From: an uncultured Gammaproteobacteria bacterium
Lineage (GTDB): Bacteria; Patescibacteriota; Microgenomatia; Levybacterales; UBA12049
DNA length: 64,000 bases
NCBI GenBank assembly: GCA_964525395.1
Contig: CAZGGU010000003.1
Coordinates: forward strand, 2,883-66,882
Direction: 5' to 3'
Shown here: piece by piece, positions 2,034-61,302 of the stretch
How positions within the stretch are numbered: the first letter of the stretch is position 1
Layout of the letters: each line of letters starts with the position of its first letter
The notes under the pieces: generated by a model
The model's input: the letters and a program-made list of their open reading frames with translations, nothing else
What the model was told of the DNA's origin: nothing
Database searches by the model: none
Position numbers and translations under genes: made by a program

Positions 2034-3032
2034 ATGTTTTCTCGTGCAAGAATCAAATTAACTGCTTATTATCTTCTTATACTAATGTCGATTAGTATTT
2101 CATTTAGTGTAATTATTTTTCAATTAGTCAACGCAGATTTTAAAAGGTTAGAAAAAGTTCAAAACAGAATTCAGCGAGAATATAATCCAGAATTTATTGG
2201 TCCTCGACCGCCACATTTAACACCTCAAGAGTTAGAGCTAGTGGGAGAAGCGAGAAATAGATTTATACTTAATTTAATTTTTATTAATTTAGTGGTATTA
2301 ATGGGCGCTGGAACTGCTGCATATTTTCTTGCAGGAATGACATTAAAACCAATTAAAGAAATGATGGATGAGCAAAATAGATTTATTTCAGATTCTTCAC
2401 ATGAACTACGAACTCCACTAACCAATCTCCGTTCAGAAATAGAAGTGACGCTTAGAAATAAAAAATTAACTAAAGATGAAGCGGTAAAAATAATAGAGAG
2501 TAATTTGGAAGAAGTAATTGTTCTTCAGAAATTGTCAGATGAATTATTAGAATTGGTTCAAGGGAAAAATAAAATCGACAAAATAAATCTTGAGAAAATT
2601 TTAATTGGTAAAGTTATTGATCAGGCGTTAGATAAAACTAAAAGTATGGCGAAAATTAAAAATATAAAAATTGAAAATAAAGTAAAAAAAGGTTATACCT
2701 TGGCTGACGAATCAAGATTGACTCAGTTATTTACTATTCTTTTTGATAATGCCATTAAGTACTCGGATAGAAACGGTAAGATTCAAATTTCTTCAGTCAC
2801 TAATAAATCTAAAATTAAAATTAATCTAGAAAATGGTGGTACAGGAATAGACAAAGAAGACTTACCTTTTATTTTCGACAGATTTTATCGGGGAAGTAAG
2901 TCAAGAAGCGAAGACGGTCATGGTTTGGGTTTGTCAATTGCTAAGAAAATCACTGAAGAATTTCAAGGATCTATCTCAGCAAAGAGTGAAAATAATAAAA
3001 CCACTTTCATTTTAATCTTCCCTGCTGCTTAA
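2034..3032 (+). CDS. sensor histidine kinase (two TM segments, HisKA + HATPase_c)
   Basis: H-box SHELRTPLTNL. N/G boxes FDNAIKYSD and GGTGIDKEDLPFIFDRFYRG...GHGLGLSIAK. Starts 2 nt after the RR stop, so likely an operon. Confidence 0.85.
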   Translation: MFSRARIKLTAYYLLILMSISISFSVIIFQLVNADFKRLEKVQNRIQREYNPEFIGPRPPHLTPQELELVGEARNRFILNLIFINLVVLMGAGTAAYFLAGMTLKPIKEMMDEQNRFISDSSHELRTPLTNLRSEIEVTLRNKKLTKDEAVKIIESNLEEVIVLQKLSDELLELVQGKNKIDKINLEKILIGKVIDQALDKTKSMAKIKNIKIENKVKKGYTLADESRLTQLFTILFDNAIKYSDRNGKIQISSVTNKSKIKINLENGGTGIDKEDLPFIFDRFYRGSKSRSEDGHGLGLSIAKKITEEFQGSISAKSENNKTTFILIFPAA

Positions 3033-3084
3033 GCTTCATTTCAGTTTGCACTGCTAAATTATTCATATGAAAGGAGGTGAGAGA

Positions 3085-3561
3085 ATGAATAAAAAACTAT
3101 TACTACCAGCAGTAACTTTACTCGTAGTTGGAGCAAGTATTTTCGGTGTACATGGCGTTTTGGCGGCTGACACTGATAATCCAGAATCTACTCTTGTTCA
3201 AAAAATTGCAACAAAGTTTAATTTAAATCAAGACGAAGTTCAAAAAGTTTTTGATGAAGAACACGCTGTAAGAGAAGCAGAGATGCAAACTAAGAATGAA
3301 GATAGACTTTCTCAGCTGGTTACTGATGGAAAAATCACTGAAGCTCAAAAAACATTGATTTTAAATAAGCAGAAAGAGCTTAAAGCGAATAGGCCAGACA
3401 AAGACAGTTTTAAGAATTTGACGCCTGAAGAGAGAAAATCTCAGATGGAAGCGAAAAAGACTGAGTTAGAAAATTGGGCCAAGGAAAACGGAATAGATAT
3501 AAAGTATCTTTTCGGTTTCGGAGGTCATGGTTTTCGAGGCGGACCAGGAGTCAATAAATAA
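3085..3561 (+). CDS. secreted hypothetical protein (signal peptide, Gly-rich C-terminus)
   Basis: Strong SD AAGGAGGTGA at 3071-3080, 7 nt before ATG 3085. The track ORF starts at 3067, but the SD sits inside its first codons. N-terminus MNKKLLLPAVTLLVVGASIFGVHGVLA is signal-peptide-like. Confidence 0.6.
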   Translation: MNKKLLLPAVTLLVVGASIFGVHGVLAADTDNPESTLVQKIATKFNLNQDEVQKVFDEEHAVREAEMQTKNEDRLSQLVTDGKITEAQKTLILNKQKELKANRPDKDSFKNLTPEERKSQMEAKKTELENWAKENGIDIKYLFGFGGHGFRGGPGVNK

Positions 3562-3575
3562 TCATATATCGGATT

Positions 3576-3620
3576 CCCAAAAATCTCTTCTTTAACGGGA
3601 GATTTTTGGGTTTTTATTTT
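3576..3620. terminator. rho-independent terminator: 12-bp perfect stem CCCAAAAATCTC/GAGATTTTTGGG followed by TTTTTATTTT
   Basis: Inverted repeat read directly. The T-tract follows on the + strand. The hairpin overlaps the stop of the convergent minus-strand gene ending at 3592. Confidence 0.75.
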
Positions 3621-4620
3621 GAATAGACAAGCATCCAAAAATAAACAGACCGATGGATAGTAAAAGTTCACATGGTTCTTGCCACTGCCAATGTTTGCCA
3701 GAGAGGAAATTAATATGGATATAAAAAAAGAAAATTGGCAAAAAGTAAAAAATTAAATATTTAGAGGGAACAAAAGATTCATATTTTGTTCTTAACTTAT
3801 TAGGAAGAGCTGAAACAAGTAACCAAGCAAAAGAAAGAAAACCTGAGAAGACTAAATAAATATATGGTTGAAGTTCTTGAAGTCCATTTATGTTATGAAT
3901 GGTAGTCTCACCTTGAGCATTATTTACCTGAACTACTTCAGGAGAACTAATTCCAAAAATTCTTTGTCCCCATGAAATTTCTTCTCCTGTGATAAATAAT
4001 AATCCTAACCCAAAAATTAGAAAATAGATAAAAAATAATTTATTTGATTTGAAATATTTAAAAGAAATAGTAAAAAATAAAATTGATGAAAAGCCATAAA
4101 AAACTACTTGCAAATTTTCTAGTAAATTATCTTCTCGAATAATATCGTTAAAAACACCACCCGGCCAAGTTTTAATTAGAGCCATTATTCCTAAAAGTAG
4201 AAGAGAAATTAGAAAAATAAAGTTATTTTTGTTTTTGGTAATTTTAGATTTATCAAAAGTGAATATTCTTACGGAAAGGCTTATTAAAAATAGGAAAAAG
4301 ATTATTTCATAATGAATATGGAAATTTTGAAAAACAAAATTGGGATATGTAAATATTTCTAACAAAGTAAAAAGAATTGTGACACTAAAAGTTAAAGGTA
4401 GAATAATGAAAGAATTTATTTGATCAATTAATCTTGGGAGTTTGGTGGGTTTGTTTCTTAGTAAATTAAGTATAGAAAACAAGAATGTCATTAAGACCAA
4501 AAGTTGGATATTGAAGGGTAAATATTTTTCAATATATCCTTGATAAGAAAAAGATTCAACACCTACGAGAACAGTAGAAAGTGACGCAAGTACTAAAAAT
4601 AATAGGGCAGAGTAAGACAT
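3592..4620 (-). CDS. polytopic integral membrane protein, function unknown
   Basis: 342 aa with about 9-10 hydrophobic segments. No catalytic motif recognised. Confidence 0.55.
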   Translation of the reverse strand: MSYSALLFLVLASLSTVLVGVESFSYQGYIEKYLPFNIQLLVLMTFLFSILNLLRNKPTKLPRLIDQINSFIILPLTFSVTILFTLLEIFTYPNFVFQNFHIHYEIIFFLFLISLSVRIFTFDKSKITKNKNNFIFLISLLLLGIMALIKTWPGGVFNDIIREDNLLENLQVVFYGFSSILFFTISFKYFKSNKLFFIYFLIFGLGLLFITGEEISWGQRIFGISSPEVVQVNNAQGETTIHNINGLQELQPYIYLVFSGFLSFAWLLVSALPNKLRTKYESFVPSKYLIFYFLPIFFFYIHINFLSGKHWQWQEPCELLLSIGLFIFGCLSIQNKNPKISR

Positions 4621-6113: not shown

Positions 6114-6124
6114 ATCATTAAAAA

Positions 6125-6153
6125 TTAACTGGTTAATAAATTAATGCGTTAAT
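6125..6153 (+). promoter_or_regulatory. two near-palindromes TTAACTGGTTAA and TTAATGCGTTAAT just upstream of the small acidic protein gene
   Basis: Same TTAAC-N2-3-GTTAA(C/T) motif family as the repeats around the four-helix-bundle gene at 58282-58310 and 58724-58736. Confidence 0.35.
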
Positions 6154-6175
6154 GAAATGAAGGGGGGTGAGTATT

Positions 6176-6373
6176 ATGGCAGAATTTGAAGGAAGAATTG
6201 ACGACGGTCATGAAGGTGAGGGAGTTTTATATTTCTCCTCAAGCTTGGATGAATTGCCAATGAACGTAGCTTTAGCTAAAAGATTGGATTCAATGAGCGA
6301 TGATGAATGGGAAGAAGTTCTGAAAAAGCATCTAGAGCTTGCTGAAAGATACGACGGACCAGGAGGCCCGTAA
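6176..6373 (+). CDS. small acidic hypothetical protein (65 aa)
   Basis: Strong SD GGGGGGTGA at 6162-6170, 5 nt before ATG 6176. Protein MAEFEGRIDDGHEGEG...DDEWEEVLKKHLELAERYDGPGGP. Terminator hairpins lie on both sides. Confidence 0.5.
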   Translation: MAEFEGRIDDGHEGEGVLYFSSSLDELPMNVALAKRLDSMSDDEWEEVLKKHLELAERYDGPGGP

Positions 6374-56497: not shown

Positions 56498-57461
56498 TTC
56501 TGAAATTTTAATTACAGGGGGTGCTGGATTTATTGGTAGTAGTCTTGCTGATGAATTAGTAAAGCAAGGAGCAACGGTTACCATTCTTGATGCAATGATT
56601 GCCCCATATGGTGGCAATATGTTTAATATCAAACAAATAAAAAATAAAGTTAATTTTATTAAAGGAGATGTGAGAAATCACAAAGCTGTGGAAAAAGCAG
56701 TCAAAGGAAAAGATTTTGTTTTTCACCTGGCTGGACAGACAGGCAGAAATATTTCTATGGAGAACCCTATTCTAGATACCGAAATAAATATAATAGGGAC
56801 ATTAAATGTAATTGATGGTATTAGAAGGCAAATGAAAAAACCTAAACTTATTTTTGCTGGAAGTAGGGGAGCTTGTGGAATGCCAACATATTTACCAGTT
56901 AATGAGAAACATCCAGATAACCCTAGGGATGTCTATGGAATTAATAAAATGTCAGCTGAAAAAATGTGTCTACTTTTAGGAAAAGAAAACGATTTTGAAG
57001 TAGTATCCTTGCGACTTAATAATGTTTACGGACCAAGATGCCAAATAAAAAGTAACCATTATGGAACTATTAATTTGTTTGTTTCTTACGCATTGCAGGG
57101 AAAAGTAATGCCAATTTATGGAGATGGTTTACAAACAAGAGATTATGTGTACGTAACAGACGTAGTGAATGCTTTTATTAGTTCTATGAATCCAAAAGCA
57201 AATAATAATATGTATTATGTGGGAACTGGAGTTCCTACTTCGTTACTGGAAATAGTAGGGATAATTCAAGAAAAGATTCCTGATGCCAAATTTAAAAAGG
57301 TACCTTTTCCAAAAGAACTTAAAAGTGTAGATTTTCCAGAGTTTTATTCCGACTCATCGTTTATAGAAAAACAACTTGGTTGGAAACCAAAAATTAATAT
57401 AGAAAAAGGTATTGAAGAGACTATAGTGTTTTATAAAGAGAACTTGAAATACTATTTATGA
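56484..57461 (+). CDS. NAD-dependent nucleotide-sugar epimerase/dehydratase (extended SDR)
   Basis: ILITGGAGFIGSSLADELVKQGATVTILD. Catalytic YGINK. Confidence 0.8.
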   Translation: MKINNSEILITGGAGFIGSSLADELVKQGATVTILDAMIAPYGGNMFNIKQIKNKVNFIKGDVRNHKAVEKAVKGKDFVFHLAGQTGRNISMENPILDTEINIIGTLNVIDGIRRQMKKPKLIFAGSRGACGMPTYLPVNEKHPDNPRDVYGINKMSAEKMCLLLGKENDFEVVSLRLNNVYGPRCQIKSNHYGTINLFVSYALQGKVMPIYGDGLQTRDYVYVTDVVNAFISSMNPKANNNMYYVGTGVPTSLLEIVGIIQEKIPDAKFKKVPFPKELKSVDFPEFYSDSSFIEKQLGWKPKINIEKGIEETIVFYKENLKYYL

Positions 57462-57679
57462 AACCACAAGATATATTATTCTTAATAATTCTAGGTATAC
57501 TTTTATACAAAAGAGATTCTAGGTTGTTTGTCTGGGCAGGACTCATCTCTCTTTTAATCTCGATCCCTTTATTCGCAAAATGGATTTTCTTTACTGCTGA
57601 GAGATTTACTCTATATGCATTTGTTTTTCTTTTAATCGCGGTTCTTTTCAATTTAGCTAAAATTAGGCATAATAAATGA
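57458..57679 (+). CDS. small two-TM membrane protein (73 aa)
   Basis: Two hydrophobic helices. Start overlaps the upstream stop. Confidence 0.4.
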   Translation: MKPQDILFLIILGILLYKRDSRLFVWAGLISLLISIPLFAKWIFFTAERFTLYAFVFLLIAVLFNLAKIRHNK

Positions 57680-57682
57680 ATG

Positions 57683-57708
57683 AGTCCCGTTAGGATTTTA
57701 ATGGGACT
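57683..57708 (+). other. hairpin AGTCCC-N14-GGGACT containing the conserved TGAGTCCCGTT element
   Basis: The same 11-mer occurs at 21699-21709, also immediately 5' of a GT4 gene. Confidence 0.35.
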
Positions 57709-57747
57709 ATTTATTTATGTTGTTATTGAAAGGAAAAATCTAACGGG

Positions 57748-58293
57748 ATGAAAATCGGAATTGATATTAGCCAGCTTGCTTATCCAAATACAGGCGTAGC
57801 TAATTATCTCGAAAATCTTATTGATTCATTGTTGAAGGTGGACTCAAAGAATGAATATGTTCTTTTCTATTCATCGATGAGAAAAAATTTACAATTTACA
57901 ATTTTCAATTTTCAATCAAATCCAAATGTTTCAATTAAAAAATTTAAATTACCACCGACTTTATTAAACCTGTTATGGAATAAATTACATATTCTGCCAA
58001 TTGAAAGAATTATTGGTCCAGTAGACTTGTTTATCACTTCCGACTGGACAGAGCCTCCTGCGAAAGCTAAGAAGGCTACGATCATTTATGACATGATTGT
58101 TTATAAAAATCCTGAAGAAACAGCCAAAAGTATTGTAGAGACTCAAAAGAGAAAACTAAAATGGGTTAAGAAAGAATCAGACATAATATTTGCCATCTCT
58201 AAATCTACTAAGAAAGATATTGAAGAAATATTAGGAATTGATTCATCAAAAATTAAAGTAATTTATCCAGGGCTGAATAAATTAACTAGTTAA
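57748..58293 (+). pseudogene. GT4 glycosyltransferase N-terminal-domain-only fragment (C-terminal catalytic half missing)
   Basis: MKIGIDISQL... ends at ...KVIYPGLNKLTS, the inter-domain linker position in the intact neighbouring GT4 genes. Confidence 0.45.
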
Positions 58294-58310
58294 CACATTA
58301 ACTTGTTAAC
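58282..58310 (+). repeat. tandem palindromic repeats TTAACTAGTTAAC and TTAACTTGTTAAC upstream of the four-helix-bundle gene
   Basis: Read directly. The second copy is repeated exactly at 58724-58736. Confidence 0.8.
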
Positions 58311-58324
58311 GCGTTAATAACTTT

Positions 58325-58714
58325 ATGAAGATTACCAAATATGAGGAGTTGGAAATTTGGAATCTCAGCATCGAGATTGCATTAAAAGTTTATGAATTAA
58401 CTAGCAAGGGGAAATTCATGAAAGTTTATGGCTTAAGAGATCAAATTCGGCGTGCATCTGTTTCAATCAGTTCAAATATTGCAGAAGGTTTTGAAATGAA
58501 TAATAACAACGATTTTATTAGATTTTTGAGAATAGCTAAGAGTTCGGCTGGAGAAGTTAGAAGTCAACTTTATATTTCGTATGAGCTTGGTTATATTAAT
58601 TCAAGAGAATATAATGAATTAACCGATAAATTAATAACTTTATCCTCACAGAACGGAAAATTTATTAGTTATCTTTTGAGCAAGAAGAATAATAAAGAAT
58701 TTTTGAACCGATGA
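58325..58714 (+). CDS. four-helix-bundle protein (so-called 23S rRNA intervening-sequence protein family)
   Basis: 129 aa. YEELEIWNLSIEIALKVYELTSK...DQIRRASVSISSNIAEGF...SAGEVRSQLYIS typical of that family. Confidence 0.75.
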   Translation: MKITKYEELEIWNLSIEIALKVYELTSKGKFMKVYGLRDQIRRASVSISSNIAEGFEMNNNNDFIRFLRIAKSSAGEVRSQLYISYELGYINSREYNELTDKLITLSSQNGKFISYLLSKKNNKEFLNR

Positions 58715-58723
58715 AAGAACTTT

Positions 58724-58736
58724 TTAACTTGTTAAC
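58724..58736 (+). repeat. direct repeat TTAACTTGTTAAC (exact copy of 58298-58310) downstream of the four-helix-bundle gene
   Basis: 13/13 identical. Together the two copies bracket the 390-nt gene. Confidence 0.8.
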
Positions 58737-58751
58737 TTATTTAATTATCCG

Positions 58752-59882
58752 ATGAAGATTGCAATTAATGGTTACGAAGCCGCGGTTCCACGTTTTGGTT
58801 ATGATGAGATAACAGGACTTCCTAATAGGGTTGGTTCTAGTGCATATGTATTTGAATTACTCCTCAACCTGAACAGACTAGATCATGATAATGAATACGT
58901 AATTTATTTGCCGGTCAATCCGACAAAGGATATGCCTGCTGAATCTGAAAAATGGAAATACAATGTTCTTCCTGCGAGAAAACTTTGGACCCTTACTGCT
59001 CTTTCTCGAGAATTTGCATTGAAAAAACCATACTATGATGCTTTCTGGAATCCTGGACATTATCTTCCTCCCTTTGCTCCGAAAAACTCTATCGTCTCTA
59101 TACTCGATTTGTCCTATGTATATTTCCCAGAACTATTTGCTAAAACTGACCTTCTGAAGCTAAATAAGTGGAGTAAATATTCAGCAAAGCACGCAAAAAA
59201 GATTCTTACGATAAGTATTAGTAGTAAGAATGATATAATTAAAGAGTACAAGATTGACTCTGGAAAGGTAGAAGTAATCTATCCTGGAATAGGCATTGAA
59301 TCTAGAATTAAGAATAATGAATTAAGCATGGAGAATTTATCTAAAAAATATAGCGTCACTAGTCCTTATATTTTATTTGTTGGTACACTTCAGCCTCGTA
59401 AAAATGTAGCTCGTCTCATTGAAGCCTTTTCAAAACTTGATAGTGATATCTCTTTAGTTGTGATTGGAAAAAAAGGATGGCAATATGAAGAAATATTGGC
59501 TGCTCCAGCTAAGTTTGGCGTAGAGTCTAAAGTAAGATTTCTTCATAACGTAACAAGTGAGGATCTTCCATCCTTTTATAAAAATGCCGAGTTTTTTGTG
59601 CTCCCTAGTCTTTATGAAGGTTTTGGTCTACCTGTGCTTGAGGCAATGCAACTTGGTTGCCCAGTAATAACCAGTGACATTTCTAGCCTTCCAGAAGCGG
59701 GAGGGAATGCAGCTCTTTACTTTGATCCAAAAAACGTAGACGATATAAAAGAGAAAATGCAAAAAGTGTTGAATGACAAAGATTTAAGAAAAAAAATGAT
59801 TGACAAAGGGCATGATCAGGTGAAGAAATTTTCATGGGAAAAATCTGCTAAAGAAACATTGGCTATTATTGAATCTTTATGA
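58752..59882 (+). CDS. GT4 (GT-B) glycosyltransferase
   Basis: MKIAINGYEA...EGFGLPVLEAMQLGCPVITSDISSLPE. Full-length two-domain architecture. Confidence 0.85.
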   Translation: MKIAINGYEAAVPRFGYDEITGLPNRVGSSAYVFELLLNLNRLDHDNEYVIYLPVNPTKDMPAESEKWKYNVLPARKLWTLTALSREFALKKPYYDAFWNPGHYLPPFAPKNSIVSILDLSYVYFPELFAKTDLLKLNKWSKYSAKHAKKILTISISSKNDIIKEYKIDSGKVEVIYPGIGIESRIKNNELSMENLSKKYSVTSPYILFVGTLQPRKNVARLIEAFSKLDSDISLVVIGKKGWQYEEILAAPAKFGVESKVRFLHNVTSEDLPSFYKNAEFFVLPSLYEGFGLPVLEAMQLGCPVITSDISSLPEAGGNAALYFDPKNVDDIKEKMQKVLNDKDLRKKMIDKGHDQVKKFSWEKSAKETLAIIESL

Positions 59883-60430
59883 AAAGAGTAATGAGAAGAG
59901 GAACGACATTAATTCGTGAATTCGAAAATATGATTATGGCTTGGAGTGGCCATGTTCCATCGCACCATTTCCGCCGTTTTATTTATAGACTTGGGGGAAT
60001 GAGAATTGGTAAAGGTTCTACGATTCACTGCGGTGCTAAGTTTTACAACGCTCATAAAATAAGAATTGGGTCTGACACTATTATAGGCGAAGATGCAGTG
60101 CTTGATGGGCGAGATATGCTTGTGATTGGAAGCCATGTAGATATTGCTTCAGAAGTAATGATTTATAATGCTGAGCATGATGTAAACGATGCATCTTTCT
60201 CAGCAATTACTGGAGCTGTTGAGGTAGAAGATTATGTGTTCATTGGTCCGCGAGCAATAATTCTCCCAGGAGTAAAGATTGGAAGAGGTGCCGTAATAGG
60301 CGCTGGGGCAGTAGTCACTAAAGATGTAGAGCCGTTTAAAATAGTAGGTGGTGTGCCAGCAAAAGAAATTGGTGAGAGAACGAATAAAGATCCTCATTAC
60401 AGACTGGGAAGAGCTGCTTGGTTTAGATAA
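59879..60430 (+). CDS. hexapeptide-repeat (left-handed beta-helix) sugar O-acetyltransferase, WbbJ/WcaF-like
   Basis: IGEDAVLDGRDMLVIGSHVDIASEVMIYN...IGPRAIILPGVKIGRGAVIGAGAVVTKDV. GC looks higher than the flanks. Confidence 0.8.
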   Translation: MKRVMRRGTTLIREFENMIMAWSGHVPSHHFRRFIYRLGGMRIGKGSTIHCGAKFYNAHKIRIGSDTIIGEDAVLDGRDMLVIGSHVDIASEVMIYNAEHDVNDASFSAITGAVEVEDYVFIGPRAIILPGVKIGRGAVIGAGAVVTKDVEPFKIVGGVPAKEIGERTNKDPHYRLGRAAWFR

Positions 60431-61302
60431 TGAAATTATCAATTGTTATTCTTAGCTACAATACTCCGGATTTGATAAAAAATTGCTTAGATTCTCTCGA
60501 AAAATTCTACAAAGATGATTTAGGGAAAAATATTGAAGCTATTGTGGTAGATAATAAATCAGAAAAAGAGAACTTAGACAAAACTAAAAAATTTGTTTCA
60601 AGTAAAAAATTTGCATATTTTATCGAAAACAGTGAAAATGCAGGTTTTGGAAAAGGCTGTAATTTAGGCGTAGCTAAAGCGAAAGCAGACTATGTTTTAT
60701 TTTTAAATTCCGATGCAGAAGTAATTGACTCTAATCTGTTAGAAATGTCAGGTTTCCTTGATAAGAATCATGATATTGGAATCTTGGGTGGGAAAATTTT
60801 AAATCCTGATAAATCTCCTCAGAAATCTGCTGGCAAATTTTATAATCTATTAAATTTTTTAATTATGATTTTAGGCGGAGAAAAATTTGGTTTGCTTAGA
60901 AAAAGTCCAGAAAAAATTGAAAAAGTTGATTGGGTAAGTGGCGCATTTATGATGGTAAATAAAAAAATGTTTAATCTGATTGGTGGATTTGATAAGAATA
61001 TTTTTATGTACATGGAGGATATGGAGATTTCTTTTAAGGCAAAAAAGAAGGGAATTGAAACCTACTTTTACCCAGATGCGAAAGTAATTCATAAAGAATA
61101 TGGAAGCAGTAATCGTGGATTTGCCATTGTAAATATTTATAAAGGACTTTTATATTTTTACAAAAAATATAAAAGTCCTTGGGAATACGGGATTGTTAAA
61201 TTATGTTTATATACCAAAGCAATGCTTATTTACTTATTGGGGAAATTGACTAATAATAGTTATTACGTAAAAACATACGGGGAAGCATTAAAGATTATAT
61301 GA
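60430..61302 (+). CDS. GT2 glycosyltransferase
   Basis: LSIVILSYNTPDLI...EAIVVDNKSEKEN...LFLNSDAEV...YMEDMEISF. Confidence 0.8.
   Translation: MKLSIVILSYNTPDLIKNCLDSLEKFYKDDLGKNIEAIVVDNKSEKENLDKTKKFVSSKKFAYFIENSENAGFGKGCNLGVAKAKADYVLFLNSDAEVIDSNLLEMSGFLDKNHDIGILGGKILNPDKSPQKSAGKFYNLLNFLIMILGGEKFGLLRKSPEKIEKVDWVSGAFMMVNKKMFNLIGGFDKNIFMYMEDMEISFKAKKKGIETYFYPDAKVIHKEYGSSNRGFAIVNIYKGLLYFYKKYKSPWEYGIVKLCLYTKAMLIYLLGKLTNNSYYVKTYGEALKII

Follow-up and report, generated by a model that had tools for sequence, protein, structure and literature searches.

In the 64,000-nucleotide (nt) stretch of DNA analysed here (hereafter the window; all coordinates are window positions, and designations of the form L057 denote related sequences that were fetched for comparison), a small cassette encoding a four-helix-bundle (4HB) protein lies between two genes of a conserved glycosylation operon of Levybacteria, which comprises tm73, GT4N, GT4full, an acyltransferase gene and a GT2 gene. 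GT4N encodes only the N-terminal half of a family 4 glycosyltransferase (GT4), and an earlier, sequence-only reading of the window had taken it for a gene that was cut short by the cassette or by recombination between GT4 paralogues. We find instead that GT4N is an old, selectively maintained stand-alone gene, neither a pseudogene nor a scar, and that nothing in the window truncated it. The cassette is inserted behind this gene and carries a tandem array of short units on either side of the 4HB open reading frame (ORF), and these arrays would probably be the cassette's own cis-acting sites. Taken as a whole, this account of a conserved operon, an untruncated GT4N and an inserted 4HB cassette with paired, probably cis-acting arrays is in our judgement likely to be correct.

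The repeats that first drew attention to the region are exact copies of the 13-mer TTAACTTGTTAAC at 58298-58310 and 58724-58736, on either side of the 4HB gene, together with a near-copy at 58282-58294 that differs by one mismatch. All of these are present as originally described, and the 64 kilobases (kb) of the window hold no further exact copy. The 13-mers are two-unit pieces of the cassette's own period-8 terminal arrays. The upstream array reads TTAACTAG TTAACACA TTAACTTG TTAACGCG TTAATAAC, with the unit TTAACnnn, and takes in both the near-copy and the first 13-mer; it overlaps the GT4N stop codon and its 3′ end lies 3 nt short of the 4HB start codon. The downstream array takes in the second 13-mer, and 3 nt separate its end from the GT4full start codon. 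When the three-unit pattern TTAACNNNTTAACNNNTTAAY is searched with one mismatch allowed, nine matches are found against 0.15 expected, and they fall in only two places in the window.

The upstream and downstream flanks of the gene are inverted repeats of one another, with 58277-58301 and 58724-58748 matching over 25 nt at 76%, and local alignment of the upstream flank with the reverse-complemented downstream flank gives 16/18 at best. It is only the palindromic core GTTAAC, identical to its own reverse complement, that lets the 13-mers be read as direct repeats. Their interpretation as insertion footprints does not hold, since they are units of terminal arrays that are inverted in related cassettes and absent from the empty site described below.

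The product of the gene enclosed by these arrays belongs, as had been proposed, to the protein family found in intervening sequences (IVSs) of 23S ribosomal RNA (rRNA). The protein of 129 amino acids (aa) scores 120.7 bits against PF05635 (cut-off 33.8; E=3.9e-35) and 113.3 bits against TIGR02436 (cut-off 24). Its motif R43-S47-N51-E54 is invariant among 10 aligned proteins and fits RxxxSxxxNxxE, the conserved family motif described in PMC3936711. The 129-aa subfamily is common in Patescibacteria. Matches were also obtained to two solved structures, 2GSC (E=7e-16) and 2RLD, both deposited with five chains, and a homologous Xanthomonas protein (structure 2GSC) forms a homopentameric ring (PMC4990558). 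On the strength of this similarity to 2GSC and 2RLD, the window protein is presumed to be a homopentameric ring as well. A defence-system library and a phage protein library gave no match to the 4HB protein, and no relatives were found in IMG/VR or among GenBank phages.

Paired arrays are the standard layout of the 4HB gene family, and the window holds one ordinary instance of a widespread cassette. Wherever a 4HB gene fills the junction between GT4N and GT4full, tandem short units precede the gene and the same units follow it in reverse complement, a layout that was seen with 10/10 4HB genes of the Levybacteria loci. The copies in the window, L057, L070, L166 and L172 constitute one 4HB subfamily, whose proteins are 58-66% identical and whose units are (R)GTTAAnn, 8 nt long. 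Units of 7 nt, AGTATnn, characterize L002, L020, L054, L058 and L060, and in all of these except L058 the last unit, AGTATG, overlaps the start codon; the array unit of L035 is AGTTAGA. The generality of the layout was tested with 80 metagenomic 4HB loci of varied G+C content, nearly all of which have upstream arrays (of units such as GTTCAAn, GTCCAAG, TTTAGGA, GTTTGAA and GGTGGTTAG) and the complement downstream. The cultured organisms Riemerella anatipestifer and Nostoc likewise have upstream tandem units and an inverted downstream array.

The same layout is evident in the statistics, for which 81 cassettes were compared with 719 control ORFs. The median number of inverted 6-mers shared between the two flanks is 11 for cassettes versus 3 for controls (p=2e-18), and the upstream tandem self-match is 0.78 versus 0.56 (p=1e-29). 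Unit periods in the family are 7, 9 or 8 nt and are equal in both arms in 29/30 cases, and arms of 4-5 units are the most frequent. Across the family, the upstream array ends approximately 19 nt before the ATG, and the downstream array begins at the stop codon. Nearest-neighbour comparisons show the period tracking the protein clade in 33 of 39 cases. A literature search for repeats that flank 4HB genes generally, including the heptamers known as cyanobacterial short tandemly repeated repetitive (STRR) sequences, returned nothing beyond the heptamers of Coxiella, and thus the layout, as a general property of the family, seems not to have been described outside the Coxiella IVS.

These observations bear on the possibility that the TTAAC arrays are ordinary regulatory DNA of the host, such as a promoter or an operator, and lie outside any cassette. 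A second array in the window could be taken in this sense. It occupies 6118-6158, consists of four TTAAYnnn units of 8 nt (TTAACTGG TTAATAAA TTAATGCG TTAATGAA), and is the only other site in the window that matches the three-unit pattern. The array is located 3′ of a terminator-like hairpin and 5′ of a purine-rich ribosome-binding site and a different small ORF (6167-6373, + strand), which encodes an acidic protein of 68 aa that has no Pfam match. It might serve the 4HB protein as a target in trans, or it might be a relic arm or part of a promoter. Regulatory DNA of the host is nevertheless an improbable source of the arrays that flank the 4HB gene, given that, across phyla, the layout is constant but the unit sequence differs from one 4HB clade to another, that an inverted copy lies downstream of the gene, that no sigma-70-like promoter site was scored in the arrays, and that empty junctions carry no array.

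With regard to GT4N, the sequence-only reading proposed that the cassette had inserted into a GT4 gene, or that paralogues had recombined, and that the C-terminal half was deleted with the 13-mers left as the scar. Much of the description on which it drew is sound. The Pfam match of GT4N is confined to Glyco_transf_4 (profile positions 3-167 of 170; 35.9 bits versus a cut-off of 28.5), the C-terminal donor-binding domain Glycos_transf_1 is absent from GT4N and likewise from its orthologues of ~177 aa, and the protein stops at the inter-domain linker, where it reads ...VIYPGLNKLTS. Moreover, the gene after the 4HB gene is indeed a complete, paralogous, two-domain GT4 of 376 aa. The truncation itself cannot be upheld, because this short ORF is conserved elsewhere as a gene in its own right. 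Among 2138 homologues obtained in a protein search, the 120 best are 172-208 aa long (most are 176-180 aa), are 67-88% identical, and come from Levybacteria, Roizmanbacteria and other Patescibacteria. A genome scan located GT4N relatives in at least 387 Levybacteria-type species, in which the short form has a constant length, with an insert or with none. An alignment of 28 GT4N proteins contains 44 invariant columns, and every sequence ends just past YPG(I/V). GT4full comes after GT4N in 77 of the 80 loci that were fetched from relatives, and the short form is kept whether the junction that follows is filled or empty; even the empty junction of relatives still ends YPGV-stop.

Nor was any trace of a lost C-terminal half evident. 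The three translated forward frames of 58294-58760 contain no remnant, and tblastn searches with C-halves taken from seven full-length relatives matched nothing in the window but complete GT4 genes, with no remnant and no gene for a C-half alone. GT4N and the N-half of GT4full are only 25% identical, so that no recent recombination between the neighbouring paralogues is visible and a recent duplication of GT4N from GT4full is ruled out.

The truncation model does have a further element in its favour, in that a C-half must once have been lost. In a search of 1.84 billion representative proteins, we found full-length GT4 proteins (342-391 aa) whose N-halves are 43-53% identical to GT4N, and therefore the C-half was lost, or the gene was split, at some point. 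All 100 of 100 full-length relatives are nearer to GT4N than to the N-half of GT4full. This loss or split predates the diversification of the GT4N clade, and the short form has been retained since. We therefore regard the truncation of a GT4 gene at this site, with the 13-mers as its scar, as exceedingly improbable.

The strong conservation of GT4N and its fixed pairing with GT4full suggest that it is a non-catalytic or trans-acting partner of the latter. Neither protein has a match in the defence-system library. In two metagenomic sequences, L085 and L086 (~2500-4000), a 4HB cassette of the window's subfamily with GATTAACG units is found directly 5′ of a full-length GT4 gene, the N-half of which is ~49% identical to GT4N. 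The link of this 4HB subfamily to GT4N-family genes therefore reaches beyond genomes that have the short form.

The boundaries of the cassette become apparent when the junction between GT4N and GT4full is compared among loci. Our junction counts cover 78 loci, namely the 77 in which GT4full follows GT4N and the window itself. In 37 of these, the two genes overlap by 4-7 nt or sit at most 19 nt apart. One such empty junction, in L163 (GT4N 79% identical), reads CCAGGAGTA TAA TAT ATG, i.e. ...YPGV-TAA-tat-ATG. Set against this site, the insert in the window spans ~58276-58751, with its right end 0-3 nt before the GT4full start codon. The last five GT4N codons (NKLTS, four of them within the array) and the stop codon are cassette sequence. 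The cassette thus replaces the ancestral stop codon, and GT4N therefore gains the NKLTS tail and a new stop. Of the original insertion proposal, what survives is that a discrete 4HB cassette, missing from this site in most relatives, is present here; what does not survive is that it caused a truncation.

The same comparison speaks to the idea that the 13-mers are target-site duplications generated by transposition of the cassette. Although exact 13-bp copies that flank a gene and occur nowhere else in 64 kb are what such an event might leave, these copies sit inside longer arrays of 8-nt units (five upstream and about four downstream) and away from the cassette boundaries at ~58276 on the left and ~58751 on the right. 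In addition, the flanking units of other family cassettes are inverted and share no direct word, and the L163 empty site lacks the 13-mer. There is also no transposase, whether for this mechanism or for an insertion sequence, as the only ORF of the cassette is the 4HB gene. We consider target-site duplication very unlikely as the origin of the 13-mers.

The junction is a hot spot for small accessory genes. It measures at least 267 base pairs (bp) in 20 of the 78 loci, where the content is a 4HB gene in seven (the window, L002, L020, L054, L057, L058 and L060), a gene for a large membrane protein in five, Fic in two, Bro-N in two (one with NYN), and a YafQ/RelE-type toxin pair, DUF559, GIY-YIG and non-coding sequence in one each. 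In L162, the relative with the most similar GT4N (88% identical), an 85-aa GIY-YIG gene fills the junction and no 4HB gene is present. This stand-alone gene lies at L162:4557-4814, and one is also found in the junction of another species (L006:6549-6817).

Some junctions contain hairpins of cassette-type units of 7-8 nt with no ORF (L075:3146-3232, L029:2944-3012 and L172:2415-2500), among which that of L075 has 5+5 GTAT units and a predicted stability of -28.8 kcal/mol. Such hairpins are either deletion relics or derivatives of the cassette that resemble miniature inverted-repeat transposable elements (MITEs). Another small palindromic element recurs in the GT4N-GT4full spacers of L010, L013, L046 and L072; its hairpins, of the GTCATCCTGAAC...GTTCAGGATGAC type, look like a repetitive extragenic palindromic (REP)-like repeat of Levybacteria.

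The evidence regarding gain versus loss of cassettes at this junction is mixed. Turnover is indicated by the fact that two 4HB subfamilies fill the same junction in different species, and that the window's subfamily is located 5′ of GT4N in L070, L082, L086 and L172 and 5′ of GT4full in the window, L057 and L166. Furthermore, the closest relatives have no cassette, and remnants with no ORF exist. Two observations weigh against a recent insertion. Of the Patescibacteria cassettes of the two 4HB subfamilies, 13 were examined, and each one directly precedes a GT4-type start (MKIGID or MKIGING), a position that points to an old association or to a target preference. Within the 129-aa subfamily, moreover, the identity of the 4HB proteins tracks that of the adjacent GT4N-family gene with r=0.72, a value that comes from 28 non-independent pairs and is largely a two-clade effect. 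The corresponding co-divergence of 4HB and adjacent gene in the AGTAT-type subfamily gives r=0.25, and the L072 cassette is located before a GT2 gene.

A sister sample, L165, contains a near-identical copy of the window cassette, with identical arrays and two amino-acid changes. It is identical to the window as far as ~430 nt into GT4full, cassette included, and then diverges abruptly (window 59183-59487); the differences are at first mostly synonymous, and an indel or a misalignment follows. This pattern suggests a strain recombination breakpoint inside GT4full.

How the arrays might act is a matter on which we hold a preference with moderate confidence: we favour binding of the units by protein, possibly combined with pairing of the two arms. 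Each of the 4-5 units per arm would be bound by one subunit of the homopentameric 4HB ring. Two features make such binding plausible, namely the stoichiometry of 4-5 units to a pentamer and the conservation of the unit core, which is maintained while one to three positions vary. The equal period of the two arms is likewise compatible with it, and a spacing of 7-9 nt would suit a single strand wound round a ring better than duplex DNA. With the upstream array reaching the 4HB start codon, binding would most simply repress or autoregulate 4HB translation.

In most family members, the arms could also pair and thereby loop the cassette out of the transcript, as occurs in rRNA IVSs, and such pairing might perhaps bring the upstream stop codon and the downstream start codon together. 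Looping out would explain why insertions are tolerated between tightly coupled genes or inside rRNA. In minimum-free-energy folds, at least 15 flank-to-flank base pairs are predicted for 67 of 81 cassettes (83%), compared with 21 of 81 shuffled flanks and 34 of 150 other ORFs (23-26% of these controls).

The high frequency of predicted pairing also suits an alternative in which the element operates purely at the RNA level. The arms would then serve only to form a stem, cut by RNase III, that excises or insulates the cassette, and the 4HB protein would be inactive at the arrays. Coxiella and other rRNA IVSs are excised in this manner. However, a stem requires neither tandem units with a conserved core nor an equal period in both arms, no pairing is predicted for the copy in the window, and in some cassettes the arrays are direct. 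Mismatches between the arms likewise lack any bias toward G-U compatibility. We therefore regard a purely RNA-level element as rather unlikely, while granting it considerably more weight than the other alternatives discussed above.

Several of these same results, with others, also count against the account that we favour, and readers should keep them in view. When the whole window cassette is folded, the two arrays are not paired (z=-0.56); the prediction contains only two pairs between the flanks, with a duplex z-score of -0.6, and therefore arm pairing is not supported for the window copy. Among the arm mismatches of the family, G-U-compatible changes show no excess (89 vs 84, p=0.76) and transversions prevail (232/405), and thus there is no positive signature of selection on RNA pairing. 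The authors of the Coxiella study judged that its 4HB protein is probably not made (PMC4990558). A few cassettes, in L131 and in the Pseudanabaena sequence L174, have arrays that are direct rather than inverted. In L174 (Pseudanabaena galeata plasmid pPg_01, 1390-1980), the 4HB gene lies between cas6 and cas4, with ~16 AAAGCTA units upstream and AAAGCCA units downstream in direct orientation, and L131 is similar.

With these caveats in mind, protein binding at the arrays remains our preferred interpretation, and it can be extended, tentatively, to the family as a whole. 4HB genes and their arrays may constitute a widespread class of self-contained cassettes, whose pentamer would recognize the units of its own arms, as RNA or single-stranded DNA, to control expression, transcript processing, or even spread and maintenance with no canonical transposase. 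rRNA IVSs and the hairpins with no ORF would then be special cases or derivatives of this class. We offer this generalization as a possibility that is more doubtful than not.

The features of the locus are listed in Table 1. The gene order common to related loci is a gene for a large membrane protein followed by tm73, GT4N, GT4full, the hexapeptide acyltransferase gene and GT2, and the genes within 5 kb on either side of the 4HB gene encode glycosyltransferases, an epimerase, a methyltransferase and an acyltransferase by Pfam. The tm73 product has no Pfam match. An Rfam scan of 57400-59000 found nothing at E<=1, and a scan of the whole window found one tRNA only, with no rRNA in the 64 kb.

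Table 1. Features of the glycosylation operon and the 4HB cassette (window positions)
Feature	Position	Strand	Basis
tm73, 73-aa membrane-protein gene	57458..57679	+	tblastn: directly 5′ of GT4N in most of 80 related loci
GT4N, N-terminal Rossmann domain of GT4 only, 181 aa	57748..58293	+	Pfam Glyco_transf_4
4HB cassette, ~476 bp	58276..58751 (edges +/- ~3 nt)	+	Comparison with the empty junction of relatives
Upstream array, five 8-nt units	58282..58321	+	Sequence, tandem-repeat and pattern searches
4HB gene, 129 aa, PF05635 23S_rRNA_IVP / TIGR02436	58325..58714	+	Profile searches
Downstream array, ~3.8 units of 8 nt (AACTTnTT; core GTTAAC)	58718..58748	+	Tandem Repeats Finder (TRF)
GT4full, complete two-domain GT4, 376 aa	58752..59882	+	Pfam Glycos_transf_1 and a weak Glyco_transf_4 match
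Hexapeptide-repeat acyltransferase gene	59879..60430	+	Pfam; gene order kept in related loci
GT2 glycosyltransferase gene	60430..61302	+	Pfam; gene order kept in related loci

Two further sequence features of the operon were noted. The 68-bp spacer between tm73 and GT4N (57677-57748) contains a strong hairpin at 57677-57713 (-20.7 kcal/mol, z=-3.2) and a 15-nt inverted repeat, 57685-57699 / 57734-57748, the 3′ arm of which reaches the GT4N start codon; in L164 and similar relatives, no spacer separates the two genes. Within the GT4N coding sequence, at 57886-57916, the heptanucleotide AATTTAC is repeated in tandem (4.4 copies, 95% matches) and codes for the conserved motif FQF(S/T)IFNFQ.

One consequence of the present analysis is a corrected annotation, in which GT4N is a genuine, conserved N-domain-only gene that is paired with a full GT4. 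More broadly, 4HB 'IVS proteins' have been known since 1993, and thousands of genomes carry annotated copies. Our sample of 4HB genes covers Patescibacteria, Bacteroidota, Cyanobacteria and many metagenomic lineages, and most of these genes have 4-5 tandem units of 7-9 nt upstream and the reverse complement downstream. This pattern joins rRNA IVSs, 4HB genes embedded in operons (for example, between cas genes) and hairpins with no ORF as one kind of element, and it provides the concrete hypothesis that a ring protein binds its own repeat arrays, with or without pairing of the arms. The general array layout opens the old question of the role of IVS proteins to experiment.

Both the short glycosyltransferase gene and the cassette can be compared with known systems. 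Alg13/Alg14 is a split glycosyltransferase of the GT-B fold that belongs to family GT1 and is a relative of the GT28 enzyme MurG, whereas GT4N belongs to GT4. In both systems, one Rossmann half is a separate, conserved gene. Unlike Alg13/Alg14, the neighbour of GT4N is a complete two-domain GT4 rather than the missing C-half, and the window has no gene for a C-half alone.

Diversity-generating retroelements have an accessory protein, Avd, which forms a basic pentamer and binds nucleic acid. The window 4HB gene has glycosyltransferase genes as neighbours and, unlike avd, no reverse transcriptase gene or template/variable repeat pair nearby; a search around it found no repeat pair longer than 25 nt. 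It is not a component of a diversity-generating retroelement, because there is no reverse transcriptase nearby, although Avd has a homologous four-helix-bundle fold (PMC10053308).

4HB cassettes share with MITE and REP elements their inverted-repeat ends, an intergenic position, and hairpin derivatives that lack an ORF (L075, L029 and L172). They differ in that each arm consists of tandem units of 7-9 nt and not of a unique terminal inverted repeat, and in that no target-site duplication is seen. We know of no transposase partner for 4HB cassettes. As in rings of the TRAP type, which bind short RNA repeats arranged in tandem, the putative interaction would involve a homo-oligomeric ring, a number of repeats near the number of subunits, and an array that overlaps the translation start. 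The fold is unrelated to that of TRAP, however, and the cassette has a second, inverted array downstream.

The closest parallels are the 4HB-encoding 23S rRNA IVSs of Coxiella and Leptospira. ORFs of this family have also been found in rRNA insertions of bacteria of the candidate phyla radiation (CPR) and between cas genes (PMC3936711). The IVS of Coxiella burnetii is 428 nt long, and its terminal inverted repeats pair in a 28-bp stem that RNase III cleaves; the start codon of the ORF for its 4HB protein ('S23p') is directly preceded by tandem heptamers of GACAGAT, with two to three full copies, depending on the strain, and one degenerate copy (PMC4990558). The window cassette has the anatomy of an IVS but does not qualify as one by location, because it is not in rRNA: it lies between two genes of an operon and not in helix 25 or 45 of 23S rRNA. 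Its units also differ from those of Coxiella in being 8 nt long with a palindromic core, and its ends are only weakly complementary (76% of 25 nt), with no long-range stem predicted. In other respects, the resemblance is close: in the IVSs and in the window alike, a PF05635 ORF is enclosed by terminal inverted repeats, and the Coxiella IVS and the window cassette both have tandem repeats just before the start codon, a size of ~430-480 nt, and relatives that lack the ORF.

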